Virus record (IMG/VR): IMGVR_UViG_3300047509_000037
Span: 1-64,000 of that record
From: a virus
Length of the DNA: 64,000 bases
Reading direction: 5' to 3' (one strand)
Within the stretch, counting starts at the first letter, position 1; each line of letters opens with the position of its first letter. The notes beneath the pieces are model-generated. The model made no database searches, was not told the DNA's origin, and saw nothing but the letters and a program-made list of their open reading frames with translations. This document shows, piece after piece, positions 19,570 through 52,124 of this stretch. The position numbers and the translations under genes were made by a program.

Positions 19570-19975
19570 CAACTAGTTGTGCCGAGCCTTTCTAGTAGGC
19601 ACATGCCGCGACGATTTACGCACGTATGAAGCGCAGGCTTCTGTTGTCGGACGCGGGTTCGACTCCCGCCGCCTCCACCAAGAGCACCAATAATTCCGAC
19701 GGCACCCTTCAGAGGGGACTCGCCGCGAGTATAGAGGGATTTCTGAATTGGTGTTCTTGACGGGGGCGTCATGGTTTCGACGGCGGCTGATGCAGGCGGG
19801 GACGTGCCGGGGTGCTGTGGCTCACCGACCGAAAGGTTAGAGCGCAAGAACGAGTTGCGCCAACGAGACATCAGAAAAAACACTTGCTAAGACTAACACT
19901 CTTGCAATGGGCGCTGCCGCTGGTCGGTAGTTCTCACGCGGCTTGGTCCCCACCGTGTCAAATAACGGGGACACT
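19570..19975 (+). ncRNA. ssrA: Circularly permuted (two-piece) tmRNA
   Basis: Acceptor piece ending GGACGCGGGTTCGACTCCCGCCGCCTCCACCA (19680) lies upstream of the conventional 5' end GGGGGCGTCATGGTTTCGAC (19762). G3:U70 pair present. Tag ORF 19886-19930 reads AKTNTLAMGAAAGR*. Outer boundaries approximate. Confidence 0.85.
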
Positions 19976-19994
19976 TTTTCTCAGGAGAACCAAC

Positions 19995-20261
19995 ATGAGC
20001 AAAGAATCGACATCCGTCAGCGTGGGCTTTCCGCTGGCAAGCATTCTCACCGTCATCTTCGTCATTGCGAAGTTGATGGGCACCGTGGCGTGGTCTTGGT
20101 GGTGGGTGTTCTCACCGCTGTGGATTAGCGCCCTTCTCGGCATCGGTGTCTTCGTCATCATCATCATCATGGTCGTGGCGGCAATCATCGCCGTCATCGC
20201 CGCAATTCTCGACAAGTTCACGGGCACACGCTGTTGTGGAACACCGGGGAAATCTCGGTGA
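19995..20261 (+). CDS. Small membrane protein (WSWWWVFSPLW type)
   Basis: AGGAG RBS; two hydrophobic helices; motif common in phage membrane proteins. Confidence 0.7.
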   Translation: MSKESTSVSVGFPLASILTVIFVIAKLMGTVAWSWWWVFSPLWISALLGIGVFVIIIIMVVAAIIAVIAAILDKFTGTRCCGTPGKSR

Positions 20262-21668: not shown

Positions 21669-22541
21669 ATGGCATCAGAGGCGAACGTCCAACTCTACAT
21701 GGAAGGGTTGTGTAAAGTTGCGACCCAAGGAAACGTCTCTGTCAATTTCGCGTGGTTTGCGAACCGGATGGAGTTGTTCTGCAATAAGTGCAAGCAGACG
21801 TTGACCGCCGCGAAGCCTGAAGACACGACCATAGATTACGCGGTCCAAGAATTTCTCAAGCTGCATCTGCACAAGGTTCACCCGGACTATTGCTCGTGTG
21901 AGACCTGTGCTGCCATCGTCGCGCAAAAACAGAAAGAGACGTGGGGTGACAAAAAGAATCCGTGGGCTAAGAACGAAGTCCCTCTGACTGCGGACTTCAA
22001 GCCCGTGCCGCAACAATCGTTCACTGGCGAGGAAGCCTACAAGACCGCGATGGATGCGGCGCTCACGAAACCCGACGCGGTCGTGATGACAAACATCGAA
22101 GTGCCTGACCCGGACGGATATGGGCTGACGAACCTGCCCAAGATAAAACCGCCGATGAACAACTACGACAAGGATGCTCCATACCTTGCGGAGAAATTGA
22201 AATCGGTCCAGCAAGAGTACGCCGCGAAGGTGAACGACGTAGCGAACAAGATTAAGCTGCTTCAACTCTCGTCGCAGGAAGCGAAACTTGAGGCGATGCA
22301 ACAGAAGGTAGCCGCCGCTCAGAAAGCATTTGAGGAACAGGCGAAAGCTGTCACGGCGGAAGATGGGGTTTACTACTCGAAAGAGACCGTCGAGAAACTA
22401 AAGCAGCAACTAGAAGGATTCGGCTATAAGAAGCCGCTGCAAATCATACAGCATCAGCCTTACGTTCCGCCGCAACCGCCCGCTCCGGCTCCAAAGAAAG
22501 AGAAGCCGCTCAAGCAGGCAGCGGGAAGGAAAATCCGATGA
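21669..22541 (+). CDS. Hypothetical Zn-finger/coiled-coil protein with C-terminal GRKIR
   Basis: CNKC and CSCETC; ends KQAAGRKIR*. Confidence 0.75.
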   Translation: MASEANVQLYMEGLCKVATQGNVSVNFAWFANRMELFCNKCKQTLTAAKPEDTTIDYAVQEFLKLHLHKVHPDYCSCETCAAIVAQKQKETWGDKKNPWAKNEVPLTADFKPVPQQSFTGEEAYKTAMDAALTKPDAVVMTNIEVPDPDGYGLTNLPKIKPPMNNYDKDAPYLAEKLKSVQQEYAAKVNDVANKIKLLQLSSQEAKLEAMQQKVAAAQKAFEEQAKAVTAEDGVYYSKETVEKLKQQLEGFGYKKPLQIIQHQPYVPPQPPAPAPKKEKPLKQAAGRKIR

Positions 22542-29534: not shown

Positions 29535-30458
29535 ATGGCATCACTCGCACCCGCATTCAATCAGACAGTCAACGTCACGAAGGCAACCCAAGAATGCGTG
29601 TACATCACGACGCACTATCACATGGGCATCGGTCGGATGCGACAGATTAGCCTCGACACGAAGAACGTCACGACCGCTGACGCGTCGGAACTGCGTCACC
29701 AGAAGCGGCTGATTGATTCGCCTGAACTCGACGCCATCCGTTCGCAGGATGGATTCATGCAGCGCCACATCGACAGCGTCACCTGTGCTTGCGACAAGAG
29801 CACGCGGTTCCTGCCGAAGCCCGAACTGGCGAAGCTGTACAAGGCGCTGGTCGCATACCAGACCATCCGGCGTCCGAAACTCGTGGACGCATTCATGGCG
29901 AAGTATGAAGCCCTCGAAGCTGCGGACTTCACGCCACTGGCTGAAGTGCTGGGCGACAAGTTTGACCGTGCCGATTATCCGAAGGCTGACACGGTTCGCG
30001 CTGGCTTCTACATGACGTTCCGCATTCGTCCGGTCGGTAGCGTGAACCTTGAAGGCTGCCCTGACTTCGTCATTGCGATGGAGTTGGAGAAAGAACTGAG
30101 CGAACGCACTGCCGCAATCGAAGCGTGGAAGGACACGCTGCGGTTGGCTGGTCTCGCTGCCGTAGAGACCCTGGCGAAGGCACTGTCGCCTGACCCGGAT
30201 GGCAAGCGCAAGAAACTCTACGAGAGCAACGTCGAGAACCTGAAGCAATACCTCGACACATTCACCAACCGCGACCTCGCCTCTGACATCGAATATCAGA
30301 AGACGGTCGTCGAACCGCTGAAAGCTATGATGCGCGGCGTCTCAATCGAAAAGTTGCGAGAGAGCGACAACCTGAAAGTTGAAATCGCTGCCAAGCTGGA
30401 AGGCATCAAGAAGAATGCCAGCCGGCTCGTGCAAGTCACTGGTCGTAAAATTCGCTAG
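29535..30458 (+). CDS. DUF3150-like protein with C-terminal GRKIR
   Basis: KRLIDS..., LGDKFDRADYP...VRAGF, GKRKKLYESNVENL; ends VTGRKIR*. Confidence 0.65.
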   Translation: MASLAPAFNQTVNVTKATQECVYITTHYHMGIGRMRQISLDTKNVTTADASELRHQKRLIDSPELDAIRSQDGFMQRHIDSVTCACDKSTRFLPKPELAKLYKALVAYQTIRRPKLVDAFMAKYEALEAADFTPLAEVLGDKFDRADYPKADTVRAGFYMTFRIRPVGSVNLEGCPDFVIAMELEKELSERTAAIEAWKDTLRLAGLAAVETLAKALSPDPDGKRKKLYESNVENLKQYLDTFTNRDLASDIEYQKTVVEPLKAMMRGVSIEKLRESDNLKVEIAAKLEGIKKNASRLVQVTGRKIR

Positions 30459-30888: not shown

Positions 30889-32451
30889 ATGTCTAAGACA
30901 TTCATTCAGATGTTCACGGATGCCCGCGCAGTCTCGACACCGAACGTCGCAATCAAGACGTTCGACAACGCGTCCACCATCCAAGGTATTCGCGCTTCAC
31001 TCGGCGGCGAACTCGCTGAGTTAACGCCGTTCGTATCGTGGGATGGTATCCACGGTCTCAAAGGTCTGAACGACTCCGGCGTCGAAGCGGTCGATGCGAT
31101 GTGCAAGAAAGCTGACGGCGGCGCTGGGGTTGACCGCGCTGCCACGGTTGACTTGACCATCTGTCTCGCCACGCTTGAAGAAGCGGACGAGGATGTCATC
31201 GCCTTCATTCACAACCCGCAATTGTTTTGGGACAAAGACCCGCGTGCCATTCAGGGCATGTGGAATCTGCGTGACCCCAACAAGGCGGCTGGCAACATGC
31301 TGGTGCTCTTGCTTGGTCCTGGCGACGAACTGCCTGCGGAACTTCAGCAGGACACGCTGGTGCTCGAAGAACCGTTGCCCACGCGTGACCAGCTTGCGAA
31401 AATCGTGACCGACACCTACGGTTACTTCGCACAGAAATATCCCGCGTGCAAAAAGGGACCGTCGGCTGAAGTGCTCAAGGCTGCGGTCGATGCACTCATC
31501 GGTCTGCCAGCGTTCCCGGCTGACCAGGCTGTTGCGATGTGCTTGGACAAAGCCACGGGCATTCTCGACATCGAAACCCTGTGGGCACGCAAGCGCAGCA
31601 TCGTGAGCCAGAACCCCGGACTCAGCTACCACGCTGGGAAAGAGAAGCTGGCTGACATGTACGGATGCGCCCCGATTCAGGCATTCGGCAAGGCTTTCAT
31701 GGGCGGCAAGTTCGCTCCCACACTCATCGTCCGCATGGATGAAATCGAAAAGCAATTCGCTGGCGCTGGCACGGATAGCAGCGGCACGAAAGGCAACCTG
31801 CTTGGTGAGTGGCTGACGTGGGTGAACGACAAGCGCATCGTGTGCTCGTTGTTCGTCGGCGTTCCGGGTTCGTCCAAGTCGCACAGCGTTTACTGCATCG
31901 GCGGCGAGTACGGTCGTCCGGTCATCAACTACAGCATCCCCGGCATGGAGCATGAGCACGTCGGCATGTCTTCACGTCACCAGCGCACAGCGCACCGCGT
32001 GCTGGACGCAATCAGCGACGAGAAAATCTGGCTCATCGCTACTGCGAACAACATCGACGGCTTGCCGCCGGAGCTAATCTCCCGGTTCCAAGTCGGCGGC
32101 ATTTTCTTCTTCGATGCTCCTGACTCCGATGAGAAGCAGGGCATTATGAAGCTGAAGATGAAAGCCTACGGTCTCGACGCAAACCAGGACGTTCCGAACA
32201 TGGACGACTGGACTGGTCGTGACGTTGACAACTGCGCTCGTAAGGCGCTCACGCTGGGTATCGACTTGGACAACGCGTCGAAGTTCATCGTGCCACTGCT
32301 CCAGTCACACGGGGCGCAGATGGATGCACTGCGGCAATCCGCCAGCGGTCGCTTCCTCGCAGCCAACAAAGAAGGCGTGTACAAATACAGTCCTCCTGTT
32401 AAGAAACCTATTGTCACCGTCACAAACCCTGAGGGTAGGAAAGTCAGGTAG
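30889..32451 (+). CDS. Ycf46-like AAA+ ATPase with permuted core and C-terminal GRKVR
   Basis: Walker B IVRMDEIEK precedes Walker A-like GVPGSSKS; sensor-1 IATANN, LPPELISRF, IFFFDAP, WTGRDV. Confidence 0.85.
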   Translation: MSKTFIQMFTDARAVSTPNVAIKTFDNASTIQGIRASLGGELAELTPFVSWDGIHGLKGLNDSGVEAVDAMCKKADGGAGVDRAATVDLTICLATLEEADEDVIAFIHNPQLFWDKDPRAIQGMWNLRDPNKAAGNMLVLLLGPGDELPAELQQDTLVLEEPLPTRDQLAKIVTDTYGYFAQKYPACKKGPSAEVLKAAVDALIGLPAFPADQAVAMCLDKATGILDIETLWARKRSIVSQNPGLSYHAGKEKLADMYGCAPIQAFGKAFMGGKFAPTLIVRMDEIEKQFAGAGTDSSGTKGNLLGEWLTWVNDKRIVCSLFVGVPGSSKSHSVYCIGGEYGRPVINYSIPGMEHEHVGMSSRHQRTAHRVLDAISDEKIWLIATANNIDGLPPELISRFQVGGIFFFDAPDSDEKQGIMKLKMKAYGLDANQDVPNMDDWTGRDVDNCARKALTLGIDLDNASKFIVPLLQSHGAQMDALRQSASGRFLAANKEGVYKYSPPVKKPIVTVTNPEGRKVR

Positions 32452-36688: not shown

Positions 36689-36851
36689 TCATTGCACGTG
36701 CCCGCATTGTAAGCTGGCTCACAAGATGCCCGCCTACGTCTACGCACATTGGGAAGACGCGTTCACCGTGACGTGTGCCGATGAAGGCGAGACCAAGGGA
36801 TGCGGCAAACAGTTCGAGATGTTTCAGGGAGAGACCGAATGTATAAACTGA
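36654..36851 (+). CDS. Small Zn-ribbon protein
   Basis: CPHC...TC...GCG. Confidence 0.5.
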   Translation: MTRTTKQKEIASHCTCPHCKLAHKMPAYVYAHWEDAFTVTCADEGETKGCGKQFEMFQGETECIN

Positions 36852-37480
36852 ACGGTAAGAACCTCAGCCTCGCACGTCTCATCCCACGAGGGAAAGACGC
36901 GGACAAGCGTTTGAAATATCTCCACGTCAACAACAAGGGCGTCACCGCTGTCAGCCCCGAACTGGTCGCACGCGTCACACTGCCTGACGGTGTAGCGCAG
37001 CCCCAGCAGTCGGTCATCTACCCGCAGGAGTCTCTTGATTCGATTCCGATGGGAGCACGTGCGCCGGAGAGCAACGAACTGGTGACACTGACTGGAGACA
37101 AGCCCGCGTTCACAGGTCCGCACTATCTCGTGCCGATGGTGGACAAGTGCTTCCCAGAGCCGACAGAGACCACCGCGACGTTCACGTGCAACGGAGAACT
37201 TCTCCGCAAGCTGCTCACGGTCGCGTGCGAAGTGTGCAACGACAGCAACAAGACTCTGCGTCTTCGCATCGTTGACAACGGCAAGGCTCTACGCGTGGAC
37301 ACGTATCGCCAGCCGGGAGAACAAGAATTTTGTGGCGTCATCAAACCAATTGAGTACGACGGCGATTACATCCCCGGCGAGATTCCATCAGGTACGCCGA
37401 AGGTCGAGAAGAAACCTCAGCAGACAGGTCTGTTGCTGAAGACCAGCGCCGGGAGGAAAATCCGAGGCGAGGGTGAGTAA
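36839..37480 (+). CDS. Possible degenerate beta-clamp-fold protein with near-terminal GRKIR
   Basis: C-terminal FCGVIKPI resembles clamp-like C-terminal strands; ends SAGRKIRGEGE*. Confidence 0.5.
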   Translation: MYKLNGKNLSLARLIPRGKDADKRLKYLHVNNKGVTAVSPELVARVTLPDGVAQPQQSVIYPQESLDSIPMGARAPESNELVTLTGDKPAFTGPHYLVPMVDKCFPEPTETTATFTCNGELLRKLLTVACEVCNDSNKTLRLRIVDNGKALRVDTYRQPGEQEFCGVIKPIEYDGDYIPGEIPSGTPKVEKKPQQTGLLLKTSAGRKIRGEGE

Positions 37481-38669
37481 CGGTTGCTTCCATGAGATGC
37501 AGAATGGCGCTACCGCCGTCATCCGGCATCAAATGATTAACGGAGACATCTGGGTTAGGTGTCTTCGATGCGGCGACACGTGGCACTCCGAGGAGGAGTT
37601 CGCAATGAGCACAGGCACGGGGAAAGCGAAATGCAAACACACTCAGTGGACCACCGACAAGGTGACCGGGGTGAAGATGTGTACGGATTGCGGCACTGAC
37701 CTTGCCAAACATCCGAAGTGCAATCACGCCCTGGCGAAAATCGTCATCGAAAATGGAATGACGAAGACGCAATGTGAGAAGTGCGGAGTGATTGTCACAG
37801 AGGGTCCGGTGCAATCCGTGAAGGTTCCGCTGGGCTATGAGAAGCGATTGCTCCCGATTCCGAACGTGCGCCCCGTCGGACAGTGGGTCAAGGAAGGATT
37901 CGGAGCATTCCAGCCGAAGACACGACAGCAAGCGCAGATTCTCATCGACGAGTGGAACGAAGCATGTCAGACGAACGGCATGAAAGTTGAGTACCGCCTG
38001 CCCGTGGTGAATGTTGACTTACGTTGCAAGAAATGCGATACTCTCGTGAACGAGACGTACAAGGGCGATGTCTGCCTCTCGTGTCACCTTCAGGAGAAAA
38101 TGGCAATGGCGAAAGAACCTAAGGTCTCGAAGTCGAACCCCGATTTTGATATTTACGGAATGCCTGTCTGGAAGACCAAGAACAAACCCGCGTTCAACGT
38201 TAACAGCACTCCGGCGAAACCTGTCACGAAGAAACCAACTCTCATGGTCGTGCCGAAGGCTCCTGTCGTTCACACCGAGGGAGACATCTGGGAATTACCA
38301 CACGTCAATGCTCCGTTTATGAGTAAGCAATGGGCGTACCAAGGCAGCGCATCGACGCCGTATGTCATCACGCACTACCAGACCAAGCGCGATGGCGCGG
38401 TGACGAAAGATGGTTGGGCTTGCTCGTGCATGAATTTTACGCGGAAGACCCCACGCACCGAATGCAAGCACATCCTGAAGACGATGATGAAGAACGGCAC
38501 GAAGCCCACGGCTGATGCGAAGCTGGCGGCGGTACCCGATGAGACCCTGAAGGCGTTCCAGAAGTGGCAGCGCGAACAAGCGGCGGCGGGCGTCCCGGTC
38601 GGTGCGGGCGTCGGCGCTGAGAAGGGCAAGCTGAACATGTTTGAGAACAAGGGGAGGAAAATCCGATGA
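37473..38669 (+). CDS. Multi-Zn-finger protein with SWIM domain and C-terminal GRKIR
   Basis: Several CxxC pairs; WACSCMNF...ECKHI SWIM motif; ends NKGRKIR*. Confidence 0.75.
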   Translation: MSNGCFHEMQNGATAVIRHQMINGDIWVRCLRCGDTWHSEEEFAMSTGTGKAKCKHTQWTTDKVTGVKMCTDCGTDLAKHPKCNHALAKIVIENGMTKTQCEKCGVIVTEGPVQSVKVPLGYEKRLLPIPNVRPVGQWVKEGFGAFQPKTRQQAQILIDEWNEACQTNGMKVEYRLPVVNVDLRCKKCDTLVNETYKGDVCLSCHLQEKMAMAKEPKVSKSNPDFDIYGMPVWKTKNKPAFNVNSTPAKPVTKKPTLMVVPKAPVVHTEGDIWELPHVNAPFMSKQWAYQGSASTPYVITHYQTKRDGAVTKDGWACSCMNFTRKTPRTECKHILKTMMKNGTKPTADAKLAAVPDETLKAFQKWQREQAAAGVPVGAGVGAEKGKLNMFENKGRKIR

Positions 38670-40369: not shown

Positions 40370-40876
40370 ATGTTGAAATCAATGACACGCGAAGAACTGG
40401 ACAGGCTGCTCGAAGTCGCCAAGCAAGAGTCCTTCATGGACTACCTGATGATGCTCGTGACGTTTCTCCACGGGCTTCGAGTCTCCGAGACGTTGTCGCT
40501 GACAAAAGACAACATCGTCAACGGCTACATCGTCGTGAAGCGCGGCAAGGGTTCGCACAAATGCGAACATCCCCTCTTACTCACGCCGAGCGAAGCCGAG
40601 CACCTGTCCAGTATCGAAGGCAAGTTCTTCACGATGTCGCGCATCACGTTCTGGCGCAGGATGCAGAAATACGGTGCGACCGCTGGGCTGGCTCCATACC
40701 TGAGGCACCCGCACACGCTGAAGCACACGTGCGGCAGGCTGGGGTTTAAGGGCGGCATGACGGTGCCCGACCTCGTCGAGTGGCTTGGTCACAAGAATCC
40801 AGCGATGGCTCTGGTGTATTCCGCCAGTGATATTGACACGGCGTCACGAGCGTTCGCCGCTGCGGTGGGACGCTGA
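40370..40876 (+). CDS. Minimal tyrosine recombinase (catalytic domain only, FimB/XerC-like)
   Basis: HGLRVSE, KRGK, HPHTLKH, LGH...Y; no N-terminal core-binding domain. Confidence 0.8.
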   Translation: MLKSMTREELDRLLEVAKQESFMDYLMMLVTFLHGLRVSETLSLTKDNIVNGYIVVKRGKGSHKCEHPLLLTPSEAEHLSSIEGKFFTMSRITFWRRMQKYGATAGLAPYLRHPHTLKHTCGRLGFKGGMTVPDLVEWLGHKNPAMALVYSASDIDTASRAFAAAVGR

Positions 40877-44401: not shown

Positions 44402-45475
44402 ATGGCTCTCAAGATTCACAAATACCCGGACCTGTCGGGACCTCTGTACCATTACAACAATAGCGTCAAGCTGAGATTCAGCCCGAAGCACTGGCTCTAT
44501 CTGCTCGAAGGTGCCGACGGTTCCCTGACTCCAATCTCCGGCGTCACGAATACGCTGAAGATTGTGGACAAGAGTCAGGCACTCATCGGCTGGGCGACTC
44601 GGCTGTTCATGGAGAAAGCCGTCGCGCTTCTTCAAGAGTGTCGCCGGGGAAACATGGTCGAGGTCGAGTACGAAGACTTGATTACGATTTTGATGAAGGC
44701 GAAGGACGAGCACCGCAACGTGCTCGAAGCGGCGGGAGACACCGGACACAGCGCACACGCGTTCGTCGAATCTCTCATCCGTGCGACCGCAGTCGAAGAC
44801 GAGAACCGTCGGCTGGAGATACTGGCGAAGTTCCCTGAGGATGAGCGTGCATCGAACGCGGCTATCGCGTGCTTGGCGTTCTTCGCGGAGCACAACGTCC
44901 GGTACATCGCGGCGGAGCAACGCGTCTTCTCACTGGAGTGGTTAGTCGCGGGGATGATGGACGGCGACGTTCTGATGGACTCGTGCGACGATGCCGACTG
45001 TCCCTGCCAGCAACACGCACCGTTCAAGGACAGGCGCATGGTGCTGGATTTGAAGACCAGCAACCAAGTCGTAGCGACGTACTTCGCGCAAGCGAATTTC
45101 TATTGGAAGGCGAAGGTCGAGGAGTTCCCCGACACCAAGTTTGACGGTGTCGTCATCCTCAGGCTGGGCAAAGACGACGCGGCTGAGTTCGAGCCGTGGA
45201 TTCACTTCGGAGACGAAGCGCACGAGCGGCATCTGCGGTTCTTCAAGCGGGCACTGGACCTGAAGCAATCGGTCGAAGAAGTCGAAGGCGAGATGAAGTC
45301 GGTCAAGGCAGCCCTACGCGCTAAGGCGCAGGCGGCGAAGGACGCGGCGATGCGTATCGCGTGCCCCAAGGCGAAGGTCTATAAGGGCAGCCGCAAGAGC
45401 AAGTGCTTCGACGACGGCACACAATGTGAGGCGTGCGCGAAGATTTACTTGACAGCCAATAGCACGAAAGTGTAG
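44402..45475 (+). CDS. PD-(D/E)XK exonuclease (Cas4/RecB-like)
   Basis: SGVTNTL...L..WA, G...H...E, AGMMDG, LDLKTS, Q..FY; C-terminal Cys cluster. Confidence 0.8.
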   Translation: MALKIHKYPDLSGPLYHYNNSVKLRFSPKHWLYLLEGADGSLTPISGVTNTLKIVDKSQALIGWATRLFMEKAVALLQECRRGNMVEVEYEDLITILMKAKDEHRNVLEAAGDTGHSAHAFVESLIRATAVEDENRRLEILAKFPEDERASNAAIACLAFFAEHNVRYIAAEQRVFSLEWLVAGMMDGDVLMDSCDDADCPCQQHAPFKDRRMVLDLKTSNQVVATYFAQANFYWKAKVEEFPDTKFDGVVILRLGKDDAAEFEPWIHFGDEAHERHLRFFKRALDLKQSVEEVEGEMKSVKAALRAKAQAAKDAAMRIACPKAKVYKGSRKSKCFDDGTQCEACAKIYLTANSTKV

Positions 45476-46197: not shown

Positions 46198-46575
46198 ATG
46201 GCAACTTCAAAAACCAAAACCGGAGCCACACTCGTCTCGACCATCGGCGGTCGTGTCAAGTATCGCTTCACTTCCATCCTGATGAAGCAGGTCCAAAGCA
46301 GATACGCCTACTTCGCAACCAAGAACGAGATTTTCTCGCTCATCAACAGCCTGTTCCGCACGGAAGTCGCTGAGTTCCCGACGATTGTTTACACCGGGAC
46401 GCAGGGTCGCACGACCTACAACGCCCGCAAGAACAGCTACGGTGGATTCAGCATCGGCTGTCAAGACTTCGACCGCAACACGGTTCGCGCTATCGCAGCC
46501 AGCGTCGGTCACTCGAAGTCATTCATCAACGCGTACCTGCCCCGGTTGGCGAAAGCCGCTGCCGCTGGTCGCTAG
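46198..46575 (+). CDS. Hypothetical protein ending AAAAGR
   Basis: GAGGAGG RBS; C-terminus matches the end of the tmRNA tag. Confidence 0.7.
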   Translation: MATSKTKTGATLVSTIGGRVKYRFTSILMKQVQSRYAYFATKNEIFSLINSLFRTEVAEFPTIVYTGTQGRTTYNARKNSYGGFSIGCQDFDRNTVRAIAASVGHSKSFINAYLPRLAKAAAAGR

Positions 46576-47479: not shown

Positions 47480-48226
47480 ATGGAGAAAGCTGCAATCGTC
47501 GGAGACGCGGACGTATCTCGCGCAACACACGTCCGCCGCCGCATCACCAATCTGGTCAAGGCAGCCAACACGAGCGACTTTGACCTTGCCGAATTGTTCC
47601 ACGAGTCAAAGAAGAACCAGTACCCCGCGATGTGGGGCTTCGAGTCCTTCTCTGCTTACGGCAAGGCTCTGGCGAAGGACTACAACTTCAAGTGGACGAA
47701 GGTCTACTACCTGACTCGCATTGCTGAGAACATGGAAGCCGCGAAGCTGGAGCGTTCGCAGTACGAACCCGTTGGCAAGACCAAGCTGCGAATGATTTCC
47801 CGGCTGAAGCCTGACACCGAGTTCAACGGCGTCTCCGTCTCTATCCTGATTCGGGAACTGACGCTGAAGGCTGGGCAGATGTCACCAGACGAAGTCCAGT
47901 ACGAGGTCGATAAGATTCTCGGACTGACGGAAGATGAGTCGATGTCATGGCTCAACATCCGTGTGAAGAAGATGGCGAAGGACAACGTCATCATGCCGTC
48001 CATCGCTCTCGCAAAGAAACACATCGGGAGCGTTGGGCAGGACGAAGAAGGACAGTCGCAGGACGCAAGTGAAGGTCGCTGTCTCGAACTCATCTGTGCG
48101 AACTTCCTCGCGGACCCGAACTACAACAACGAGCAACCGCCGGATACCGCCGCGAAGATTCAAGCAGCCGCCGATGCAACCGAGGCGGCGCAAGAGGAAA
48201 ACGAACAACCAACCAACGACGAATAA
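47480..48226 (+). CDS. Hypothetical DNA-binding-type protein
   Basis: WGFESFSAY, VGKTKLRMI, RCLELICANFLA. Confidence 0.65.
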   Translation: MEKAAIVGDADVSRATHVRRRITNLVKAANTSDFDLAELFHESKKNQYPAMWGFESFSAYGKALAKDYNFKWTKVYYLTRIAENMEAAKLERSQYEPVGKTKLRMISRLKPDTEFNGVSVSILIRELTLKAGQMSPDEVQYEVDKILGLTEDESMSWLNIRVKKMAKDNVIMPSIALAKKHIGSVGQDEEGQSQDASEGRCLELICANFLADPNYNNEQPPDTAAKIQAAADATEAAQEENEQPTNDE

Positions 48227-48239
48227 CTGGAGGGTGCCA

Positions 48240-49280
48240 ATGCCATTCCGAAAGCTGGACATCACCCGCAAGACTGGTGAGGCAACCGCTCTGGCAACGA
48301 AACTCGAAGGACTCATCGTGGGACAGCGGGCACCTAAAGACGCTCTCCTGTCGGTCGTAGACCGCATCCAAAGTGGGTTCTATGACAAGACGAGACCCGT
48401 CGGCATCTTCCTCTTTCTCGGACCCACCGGGACGGGAAAGACCGGAGTAGCCGAGGCGTTCACGATGGGTCTGTTCAATAACCCGAAGATGTTGATGAAG
48501 GTGGATTGCGCAGAGTTCCAGCACTCGCACGAGATTGCGAAGCTAGTTGGCAGCCCTCCCGGTTATCTGGGACACCGCGAGACGCATCCGTACTTCACCA
48601 ACAATTCGCTCAAGGCGCATCGCACCGATGCCTTTCCATTCACGCCGATTCTGTTCGACGAGATTGAGAAGGCAAGCGACTCACTCTGGAATCTCCTGCT
48701 GGGTATTCTGGATAAGGGCACGCTCACGACGGGCGCCAACGAAGTCGTGGACATGAAGCCCACAATCATTTTGATGACCAGCAACGTCGGGGCGTCGGAG
48801 ATGTCGGAAGACAAGTCTCTGGGCTTCGTCGGCAAGACCACAGTTGATGATGCCAAGCTGGAGTCAATCGCTCTGGCGGCGGCACGGCGGAAGTTCTCGC
48901 CGGAGTTCCTGAACCGCATCGACTACATTTTGAACTTCAAGACTCTGACTGAAGACGAACTCAAACAGGTTCTCGCGCTTCAGTTGCAATTGCTTCAAGA
49001 CCGCATCGTCGTTGACTCGAAGGTGCTCTTTGAACTGCGTGTCTCCAGCCGGGGACTCGCGCAATTGCTGGTGGATGGTTATGACCGTCGCTACAACGCA
49101 CGGCATCTCAAGCGGACGATAGACAAACACATCTCCGCTCCGCTAACGAGTCTTGTCGCCACGGGGCAGATAATGAACGAAGACGTTGTCATCGTTGACT
49201 ACCTCGAAGGCGACTGGCGATATGTGGCAGTACCGAGGGCGAATGCTCCCCAAGGCGATTTCTCAGGCAGTCTACCGTAG
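48240..49280 (+). CDS. Single-domain Clp/Hsp100 ATPase (ClpA/B/C D2-like) with LGF loop
   Basis: IVGQ, RPVGIFLFLGPTGTGKT, GSPPGYLG pore loop, LFDEIEKA, MTSNVG, SLGF, FSPEFLNRID, YNARHL. Confidence 0.9.
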   Translation: MPFRKLDITRKTGEATALATKLEGLIVGQRAPKDALLSVVDRIQSGFYDKTRPVGIFLFLGPTGTGKTGVAEAFTMGLFNNPKMLMKVDCAEFQHSHEIAKLVGSPPGYLGHRETHPYFTNNSLKAHRTDAFPFTPILFDEIEKASDSLWNLLLGILDKGTLTTGANEVVDMKPTIILMTSNVGASEMSEDKSLGFVGKTTVDDAKLESIALAAARRKFSPEFLNRIDYILNFKTLTEDELKQVLALQLQLLQDRIVVDSKVLFELRVSSRGLAQLLVDGYDRRYNARHLKRTIDKHISAPLTSLVATGQIMNEDVVIVDYLEGDWRYVAVPRANAPQGDFSGSLP

Positions 49281-49996: not shown

Positions 49997-51653
49997 GAGT
50001 TACCAGCAGGACGCACTCAATTCCATCGTTACAAACTATGACGCGGGGGCGAGAAAACTTCTCATTCAATCGGCAACTGGAACAGGGAAAACGATAATTT
50101 TCGCATCCCTGTACGAGCGCATGAAGTCCCGAATACCCGGACAGATGTGGGTTCTGTCTCACACGGAAGAACTAGTTGTCCAGAATTTGAAGAAACTCCA
50201 ACAGGTGAACCGAGCCCTGAAGGTAGGCAAAGAGATGGCGGGGAGTTATGCCGACCCTGATTGCGATATAATCTCGGCGTGCGTGGCGACAACAGGTAGA
50301 CACGGAACGAAACGCAATGACAGATTTAATTGGGGGAATGTTTCCCTGCTCACAATCGACGAGGCTCATCACTCCACCGCTGACGCATACGGACGAGTCA
50401 TCGACCTTGTCGGCATTAACAGCCCCGGCTCGAACAAACTTCTGGTCGGCGTTACGGCAACGGCTCAACGTCCTGACGGCAAGGCTCTGTCTGAAGTTTT
50501 CGACAAAGTTGCCTACGTGTATGGGATGCGGCAAGCCATCGAAGAAGGATGGCTCGTGCGTGTTCGGGGATACCGAGTATCGACGGACACATCCGTGGAC
50601 GACGTATCGGTTTCATCTGGGGACTTCTCCGTCACCAAGCTGGCGGCACGTGTCAACACGGAAGCACGAAATCGACAAGTCGTAGAGGCATGGGCGAAGC
50701 TGGCGGGCGACCGCCGAACGGTTGTGTTCTGCGCCGACATCGACCATGCGAAGGCAATGGCTGAGGAGTTTAAGAAGTCAGGCGTACTCGCGGAAGCTGT
50801 CTGGGGTGAAGACCCGGAGCGCGAGTCAAAACTGGAGACACACCGTGCGGGAAAAATTCAAGTTATTTGTAACTGCGCTGTACTCGTGGAAGGCTACGAT
50901 GACCCAAGCATTGCGTGCGTTGTACTGGCTCGTCCTACCACGTCTCCTGTCCTATTTTCCCAGATGGTAGGACGCGGGACTCGTCTCGCAGAAGGCAAGA
51001 AAGACCTTATCGTCATCGACGTGGTGGACGCATCGTCCAGCCACTCGCTCATCACCCTGCCGACGCTGTTGGGCCTGCAAGGCATCCTAGACCTTCGTGG
51101 GCGCGACGTGCTCACGGTTGTTGAGGAGATGGAGGAGATTCAGTTAGCGAACCCCGGCATCGACCTGTCGAAGCTGGACGACGTTGCGAAGCTGAAGACC
51201 CTCGTCGAACAAGTCAACCTGTTCACCATCCGGTTCCCGGCTGAAGTCGAAGCGAACAGCGAGTTGACTTGGTTCAAAGCGATTGACGGCGGCTACAAGA
51301 TGCTCGTGCCGAAAGATGGACCGGAGCCTGCGGGCTTCATGCGAATTTACCAGAACCAACTCGGCTCGTGGGACATCATCGGGAGCATCAAAGGCAGGGC
51401 GCTTCAGGCGAACCGCGCCACGATGGAAGACGCGTTCAAGGCGACTGATGAACAGATTCGTAAGCGGCTGTCGAAGATGGCTCTGTCTTACGTGAAACGT
51501 GAGGCTACATGGCACGGCAAACCAGTCACGAGTGGACAGATAAAAATGCTGGCGCGGTTGTTCCCGAAGAAGTTGTTTCCTTTGGAGTCGATGACATCGG
51601 GGATGGCGTCCAAGATAATCAGCGAACGCCTAGCACGCAAGCACAAAGGTTGA
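49986..51653 (+). CDS. SF2 DEAD/DEAH helicase (Irc3/RadD-like)
   Basis: LRSYQ, ATGTGKT, DEAHH, TAT, EGYDDP, QMVGRGTR. Confidence 0.92.
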   Translation: MELRSYQQDALNSIVTNYDAGARKLLIQSATGTGKTIIFASLYERMKSRIPGQMWVLSHTEELVVQNLKKLQQVNRALKVGKEMAGSYADPDCDIISACVATTGRHGTKRNDRFNWGNVSLLTIDEAHHSTADAYGRVIDLVGINSPGSNKLLVGVTATAQRPDGKALSEVFDKVAYVYGMRQAIEEGWLVRVRGYRVSTDTSVDDVSVSSGDFSVTKLAARVNTEARNRQVVEAWAKLAGDRRTVVFCADIDHAKAMAEEFKKSGVLAEAVWGEDPERESKLETHRAGKIQVICNCAVLVEGYDDPSIACVVLARPTTSPVLFSQMVGRGTRLAEGKKDLIVIDVVDASSSHSLITLPTLLGLQGILDLRGRDVLTVVEEMEEIQLANPGIDLSKLDDVAKLKTLVEQVNLFTIRFPAEVEANSELTWFKAIDGGYKMLVPKDGPEPAGFMRIYQNQLGSWDIIGSIKGRALQANRATMEDAFKATDEQIRKRLSKMALSYVKREATWHGKPVTSGQIKMLARLFPKKLFPLESMTSGMASKIISERLARKHKG

Positions 51654-51788
51654 AGAAGCTGGAGGAAGACAAGGGTGGTCGTCGATGTGATGATTGCCGC
51701 CGGGGATTTGAACCCGGACGCGATTGAGACAGCCAAGCACGAGAAGGCTCTCACCATCTGGAAGTACCTGCATCATCAGGAGGGCTAG

Positions 51789-52124
51789 TTGCTGACACCG
51801 GAAAAAGAACAACGCATTCAAGAAATCACCGCAGAGATTGCGGCAGAAGTGACCCGCGCCACGAGGATGTTTGAACCGATGAACTCTCCGCATGAAGCCG
51901 AGGGTGTCATCCGTGAGGAGTTCGACGAGTTCTGGGATGAAGTGAAGGCGTACAATCCCCGCAAGAACCGCGACACCCGTCCCGCGATGCGAACCGAGTT
52001 GATTCAGTTAGCAGCGATGGCAACACGAGCAGTGCTTGATGTCATCGACTTTGGGAAGCACTACGAGGCGCAACCATGCTACAACCCCGTTCCGACGCAA
52101 CCTACTACCGAAACTTCCAACTGA
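51789..52124 (+). CDS. MazG-like all-alpha NTP pyrophosphatase-fold protein
   Basis: HE..GVIREEFDEFWDEV...ELIQLAAM. Confidence 0.55.
   Translation: MLTPEKEQRIQEITAEIAAEVTRATRMFEPMNSPHEAEGVIREEFDEFWDEVKAYNPRKNRDTRPAMRTELIQLAAMATRAVLDVIDFGKHYEAQPCYNPVPTQPTTETSN

Follow-up and report, generated by a model that had tools for sequence, protein, structure and literature searches.

A phage two-piece tmRNA whose tag peptide ends in a conserved Gly-Arg

The virus record is 96,151 bp long and is rated complete, and the window that we analyzed is its opening 64 kb. ARAGORN predicts a permuted tmRNA gene at 19588-20021 on the plus strand, with the tag AKTNTLAMGAAAGR followed by a stop codon, and the Rfam covariance model tmRNA_permuted (RF04321) matches 19620-19946 over model positions 1-213, with 65 bits as compared to a cut-off of 47. 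Both of these tools detect a two-piece tmRNA. The order of the parts is permuted: the acceptor piece, with its CCA, lies upstream of the coding piece, which carries the 5' end. The acceptor piece (19588-19680, plus strand; from ARAGORN, the RF04321 alignment, and the sequence) includes the T arm, the 3' acceptor strand CGCCTCC (19670-19676), and an encoded ACCA (19677-19680). Next is an intervening segment of 81 nt (19681-19761, plus strand), which Rfam treats as an insertion. It is probably removed on maturation, as this is what happens in known two-piece tmRNAs (PMC11915505). The coding piece (19762-19980, plus strand; from ARAGORN, Rfam, and the sequence, with an approximate 3' end) includes the 5' acceptor strand GGGGGCG (19762-19768), a pre-tag region, the tag frame, and then a hairpin on the 3' side, GGTCCCC/GGGGAC, which is followed by a run of T (19945-19979). 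The two acceptor strands form seven of seven possible pairs, including G3:U70, which is the identity pair for alanine. The 7-bp stem with G3:U70 is kept in all 18 of the relatives that we checked, and L002 has a compensating double change in it. Across the relatives, the intervening segment is 24 to 138 nt long. We also noticed an insertion of about 45 nt before the tag (19830-19870 in the window) that is common to the window and one relative (L006); the other relatives do not have it.

The gene lies in a replication module whose order is primase, DNA polymerase, endonuclease VII, tmRNA, a small membrane protein, and a phosphoesterase. In five related loci (L002-L006) and in the phage Tunturi_3, the tmRNA is a syntenic core gene that adjoins the DNA polymerase. 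The 96-kb phage does not encode SmpB (PF01668), so the SmpB of the host would be needed, and it does not encode an ArfB-like factor either. A permissive Rfam search of the window gave no match to the alphaproteobacterial subtype (RF01849), and the only relative that reaches this model is L005, with 72.8 bits.

The tag frame, which encodes AKTNTLAMGAAAGR and a TAG stop, extends from 19886 to 19930 on the plus strand. It was obtained from ARAGORN, by direct reading, and from the codon alignment of the relatives, and it agrees with the finding that A86 of the E. coli tmRNA sets the resume frame four nucleotides downstream (PMC2481249). In the window, the corresponding A is at 19882, or four bases ahead of the resume codon GCT (19886-19888), and the same position is an A in 20 of 20 relatives. 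In the Rfam alignment, the GCU falls on the consensus resume codon. Furthermore, the tags of the relatives differ in length by whole codons, and several of the relatives have a second in-frame stop. The remaining two frames contain an immediate stop or encode a long peptide that is unlike any tag. The sequence-only reading had chosen the same resume codon from its context and had pointed out the AAAGR end of the tag, and we agree with both. Short of peptide sequencing, we consider the frame to be settled.

We reached relatives of this phage by three routes that were blind to the tag. One route used its DNA polymerase, and the other two looked for the 5' end of the coding piece, in viral contigs and in metagenomes, respectively. 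A fourth search was directed at the tag end itself. Related phage contigs encode seven distinct tags that end in Gly-Arg (GR): the window's AKTNTLAMGAAAGR, along with AETKPLAMAAAAGR, ATTKPRAMAAAAGR, AETEKPRAFAAAAGR, ATPKRAFAAAAGR, ATTPVKAMSAAAGR, and ATKPMAMAAAAGR. All seven keep A-[M/F]-x-A-A-A-G-R as the final eight residues, whereas the more N-terminal half is free to vary in both sequence and length. (The tag in the window has 14 residues.) In the window, Gly-Arg is encoded by two extra codons after the alanine run (GGT CGG, 19922-19927, plus strand), just before the stop (TAG, 19928-19930), and the codon alignment shows that relatives with ordinary tags have a stop here instead. For example, some close relatives have tags that end in AFAAAA, AFAAHA, or AFAAYA. 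Among the relatives, the Gly-Arg codons are GGT CGG, GGA CGC, GGA AGG, or GGC CGA, followed by TAG or TAA, and the three alanine codons ahead of them vary only synonymously. Because four different codon pairs encode the same dipeptide, we conclude from these alignments that Gly-Arg is selected as a peptide and is not due to a constraint on the RNA or to drift. The arginine is not absolute, as the tag of L002 ends in AGM (Gly-Met).

A skeptic might propose that the frame was miscalled or that the Gly-Arg extension is neutral drift, so that the RNA matters only for the release of ribosomes. When folded as a single sequence, the coding piece does no better than shuffled sequence, and a promoter scan did not find a consensus, and both of these results count in favor of this proposal. 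But the A at -4, the whole-codon differences in length, and the conserved stops all fix the frame, and the alternative frames do not give anything like a tag. Also, only synonymous changes were seen at Gly-Arg in the searches that were blind to the tag, which argues against drift. The comparative data largely refute this proposal, and we think that it is very improbable.

Tags that end in a charged residue seem to be rare. As of 2014, among 710 known tags, only that of Carsonella had a charged last residue (PMC4131195). We scanned bacterial genomes for A[FMIL]AAAAG[RS] followed by a stop, and there was no tmRNA among the 120 matches listed. As a separate observation, ARAGORN predicts a two-piece tmRNA on the soil contig Ga0247681_1001464 (L109, 112-620, minus strand) with a tag of 26 residues, AEQRVWPTSEQNGPLIVWVGDRWVAR, that ends in arginine; the frame is the one that ARAGORN gives.

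GR-ended and canonical tags alternate among close relatives, and both types occur in the same IMG sample. We built a tree of the tmRNA genes with the tag excluded, which left just 220 columns. In this tree, a supported clade holds five of the GR genes, and another three lie among the canonical genes. For example, L071, which is GR-ended, is the sister of L005, which is canonical, with support of 94/89. The monophyly of the capped tags was rejected (AU test, p = 0.005). With so few columns, we take this tree to indicate no more than that there was more than one switch, or recombination.

What might the host be? The portal protein and the major head protein are 67% and 77% identical, respectively, to those of the Tunturiibacter phage Tunturi_3, which is the only cultured match and has a genome of nearly the same size. 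Searches for cultured relatives with the DNA polymerase or with a 551-aa protein gave only distant matches, and comparing the DNA to 301 genomes of Acidobacteriota gave only short matches at the level of chance. Based on the one cultured relative, the host probably belongs to the family Acidobacteriaceae. The two-piece tmRNA is among the core genes of a clade of soil phages whose hosts are most likely of this family. The tmRNAs of Acidobacteriaceae themselves are in one piece in 28 of 28 genomes, with tags of the form AN..[LF]A[LF]AA that end in LAA or FAA. None of our statements depends on the unpublished genomes G315, G321, G334, G346, G453, and G454, and we excluded the loci L337 and L346. 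The sequence-only reading had proposed a comparison with the host's tag, and its interpretation would fail if the host lineage's own tags ended in GR and were degraded normally; in all 28, they do not end in GR. Tunturi_3 (PP885686.1) also has a two-piece tmRNA, which is not annotated (88172-88396, minus strand; locus L286; 63 bits with RF04321), and its tag, as read by eye, has a canonical end, ...FATMLAA. Another cultured phage of Tunturiibacter, Tunturi_4 (PP885687.1; locus L266, 5937-6471), has a two-piece tmRNA that is likewise unannotated. It is directly after a gene that is annotated as a release factor with an RF-1 domain (ArfB-like), so two ribosome-rescue functions adjoin each other in that phage. 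Because Tunturi_3 and Tunturiibacter are in culture, the role of the tag end is open to testing at the bench.

ClpX recognizes the terminal Ala-Ala and the carboxylate of its substrates (PMC7652416). The phage tag ends in Gly-Arg rather than in the Ala-Ala-COOH of an ssrA-type ClpX degron (C-motif 1). By analogy to the specificity of ClpX, which comes from E. coli and not from Acidobacteria, the Gly-Arg end should remove the tagged products from the ClpX route. Beyond this, we tentatively propose, with somewhat less than even confidence, that the GR end is a signal that is read and that re-addresses the rescued proteins. The main alternative is that the phage needs nothing but ribosome rescue. 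In this case, Gly-Arg would just mask the Ala-Ala-COOH degron, and nothing would degrade or read the rescued fragments. The phage could benefit because the capacity of the host's ClpXP is spared or because phage proteins are protected. A terminal arginine should abolish ClpX-type recognition, and among the phage genes, we found none that goes along with the GR state. Also, a tmRNA with a protease-resistant tag reportedly still supports the growth of lambda-immP22, which we count in favor of a cap. On the other hand, a cap could be made from any bulky or charged residue, whereas Gly-Arg persists across four codon pairs. The six residues that precede it are also conserved, in seven tags that otherwise drift. 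A cap needs neither an exact Gly-Arg nor a conserved run ahead of it. Because the whole A[MF]xAAAGR end is strictly conserved, we favor a signal that is read, and we think that a mere cap is somewhat unlikely.

Another argument against a mere cap is that the same end is kept on the exposed tail of a family of phage proteins. In the window, this is a protein of 125 amino acids (46198-46575, plus strand), which ends in ...LAKAAAAGR. It has no match in PDB to its fold, and AlphaFold2 predicts that its tail is disordered. The end, ...LA[KR][AG]AAAGR, is kept in eight of nine homologues that are 59-72% identical; we did not find relatives of this protein in viral contigs. At the DNA level, 46555-46575 is identical to 19910-19930 (the end of the tag) at 19 of 21 nucleotides, and these include minority codons. 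Given the codon usage, the chance of such a match if only the peptide were shared is about 5e-4. This match may reflect a DNA-level copy or gene conversion.

That the tag resembles natural C-termini of the phage was the central claim of the sequence-only reading, which quoted three of them. All three are real: besides the 125-aa protein, a recombinase (40370-40876) ends in ...AFAAAVGR, and the protein at 21669-22541 ends in ...KQAAGRKIR. Also, AA[AV]GR occurs just twice in the 25,584 residues of the phage's proteins, both times at a C-terminus, which is more than expected by chance within this genome. The resemblance seems meaningful for the disordered tail of the 125-aa protein but not for the recombinase, whose structured tail is conserved in the entire family apart from a last residue that varies. 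This recombinase is a tyrosine recombinase of 168 amino acids with only the catalytic domain (40370-40876, plus strand; Pfam PF00589, 120 homologues, and an AlphaFold2 model). The model has a mean pLDDT of 95.7 and a C-terminal helix at residues 155-166. In over 100 homologues, the protein ends with AFAAAVG and one more residue, which is K, R, A, Q, G, L, or V. The tail does not covary with the type of tag: AFAAAVG[RK] is found with the GR tags of G000, G005, and G003 and with the canonical tag of G002, and the AFAAAVGK form occurs in both G002 and G003. Nor is there homology between the tag and this tail at the DNA level, as the codons differ. In our view, this match comes from the structure of the enzyme, although it is curious that the orthologue in G005 ends in AFAAAAGR, as two of the tags have these same eight residues at their end. 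More broadly, the recombinase belongs to a large family of tyrosine recombinases that have only the catalytic domain, with over 120 members of 160-180 amino acids and a conserved C-terminal helix. In the window, the recombinase gene lies between genes for a DNA ligase and a hydrolase, in what looks like a lytic phage.

The third quoted C-terminus belongs to another group of tails. Five early proteins have G-R-K-[IV]-R at or near the C-terminus (21669-22541, 29535-30458, 30889-32451, 36800-37480, and 37473-38669). Four of these end with the motif, and the other (36800-37480) ends in GRKIRGEGE. The orthologues of these proteins end in GRKFR, GRKMR, or GRRFR regardless of the type of tag, so GRK[IFMV]R tails are not a marker of GR tags, and the tag itself is not a tail of this type, as it stops after Gly-Arg. 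We also came across a pair of orthologues, in G003 (44801-45265, plus strand) and G002 (51563-51982, minus strand), that end in LAAAAAAGGD and LAAAAAAGGN, which is a further conserved tail with a run of alanine, Gly-Gly, and one more residue.

If the GR end is read, then what reads it? The obvious candidate in the phage is a one-ring Clp/Hsp100 ATPase (48033-49280, plus strand; Pfam AAA_2 and ClpB_D2-small). This is similar to the D2 ring of ClpC or ClpB, which are also its best matches in PDB. The sequence-only reading suggested measuring whether this ATPase, together with ClpP, degrades a protein with the GR end, but the phage does not encode ClpP. The ATPase could instead dock on the ClpP of the host and degrade proteins that end in AAAGR, so that the tag would be an orthogonal degron. 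It is an unfoldase of the ClpC/ClpB D2 type; it is present in three other contigs with GR tags (G005, G003, and G012); and the 125-aa protein, with its hard-wired AAAAGR tail, is encoded 1.5 kb upstream of it. However, the same ATPase, at 59% identity, is in G002, which has a canonical tag, so it is not a marker of GR tags. The docking on ClpP is hypothetical, and we did not find the ATPase in G011, which has a GR tag, or in G001, which has the Gly-Met tag, although both of these contigs are incomplete. Overall, we consider an orthogonal degron to be quite improbable, and the ATPase is just a candidate reader. More generally, no gene is common to G000, G005, G003, G011, and G012 and absent from G002, with the proviso that several of these contigs are incomplete. 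Thus, the interpretation that came with the sequence-only reading is supported in part: the tag is real, its GR end is conserved, the tags of the probable host family are canonical, and the family of the 125-aa protein has the same exposed tail, while the parts that relied on the recombinase, the GRK tails, the Clp ATPase, and ClpP were weakened or lacked support.

The genome scan turned up a possible lead in the likely host lineage. A family of Hsp20 proteins from Acidobacteriota ends in ...IKVNVEAPAMAAAAGR, and its members use varied codons for it (L141, 6276-6779, plus strand; L214, 5955-6431, minus strand; L208, L238, and L256; and loci L288-L317). The last eight residues of its conserved tail, PAMAAAAGR, are the same as those of phage GR tags, and variants that end in Gly-Lys also occur. 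Among the closest 120 homologues, 81 end in GR and 54 end in AAAGR, and the last residue is R or K in 117. We also read 27 orthologues from Acidobacteriaceae, and the closer ones end in an alanine-rich stretch followed by G or A and then by R or K. We should mention that these families surfaced in a search that required this peptide, and that several unrelated bacterial families also have alanine-rich tails with R or K as the last residue. So the resemblance of the Hsp20 tail to the tag may be compositional. Nevertheless, as judged by comparing the peptides, the identity between the Hsp20 tail end and the phage tag end is a new lead. At the speculative end, the phage tag might copy the PA[MF]AAAAGR-COOH tail of the host lineage's Hsp20, and the rescued proteins might be passed to a host reader, such as a holdase assembly, a disaggregase, or a dedicated protease. 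We would be surprised if this specific idea were correct. If it were, there would be a second C-terminal address code in Acidobacteriota that was not previously recognized, and phages would turn it on or off through the gain or loss of two codons.

Putting this together, we imagine that a host enzyme charges the phage tmRNA with alanine and that, with the host's SmpB as partner, it frees stalled ribosomes. The tmRNA would add a 14-residue tag that ends in A-[M/F]-x-A-A-A-G-R, an end that is kept as a peptide. The Gly-Arg extension would replace the free Ala-Ala-COOH that ClpX-type proteases read and that the tags of the probable hosts carry (AN..LALAA). The rescued proteins would then be re-addressed, off the host's tag route and towards a partner that reads the alanine-rich Gly-Arg end. 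Because no phage gene tracks the GR state and because Hsp20 of the host lineage shares the tail, this partner is more likely to be a host protein than a phage protein. The outcome could be stabilization, holding, or a different kind of proteolysis.

The tags of tmRNAs are the classic case of a degradation signal at the C-terminus. Nearly all of the known ones end in a small nonpolar residue. A clade of phages that keeps a GR end under selection and swaps it with ordinary ends would be a natural experiment in which the rescue of ribosomes is uncoupled from what happens to the rescued proteins. And if a specific partner reads the Gly-Arg end, then this would be a new C-terminal signal in an abundant and little-studied phylum of soil bacteria, and possibly an orthogonal tag for engineering.

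How does this tmRNA compare to known systems? The tmRNAs of the OM43 phage Melnitz and of pelagimyophages (PMC9004378) are similar in that the gene is permuted and is near early genes in a lytic-type phage that does not encode SmpB, and their function is likewise presumed to be ribosome rescue. Those examples are mostly marine or aquatic and the ends of their tags are not mentioned (PMC9004378), whereas we describe a soil clade with a Gly-Arg end. The other tags of phage two-piece tmRNAs that we read end in alanine. The only published tag with a charged end that we found, from Carsonella ruddii (PMC4131195), ends in lysine, and the likeness is limited to its charged last residue: Carsonella is a degenerate endosymbiont rather than a phage, its tag does not have a capped run of alanine, and in some of its strains, the end has become hydrophobic again. 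The one-piece tmRNAs of Acidobacteriaceae share the tRNA-like core and the alanine resume codon with the phage's tmRNA, and presumably SmpB and alanyl-tRNA synthetase as well, but their genes are not permuted and their tags have 9 residues and end in LAA or FAA, instead of 14 residues and AAAGR. The tmRNA of Tunturi_3 is in two pieces and is downstream of the DNA polymerase, like that of the window, but it has a different acceptor-stem sequence and a long tag with the canonical ...FATMLAA end. Finally, ssrA tags have been engineered to resist proteases, for example by changing the terminal AA to DD. As with the phage tag, the terminal Ala-Ala-COOH is removed and ribosome rescue is expected to persist. 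But the DD-type tags are laboratory constructs, while the phage tag is natural, is specifically Gly-Arg, and is under selection.
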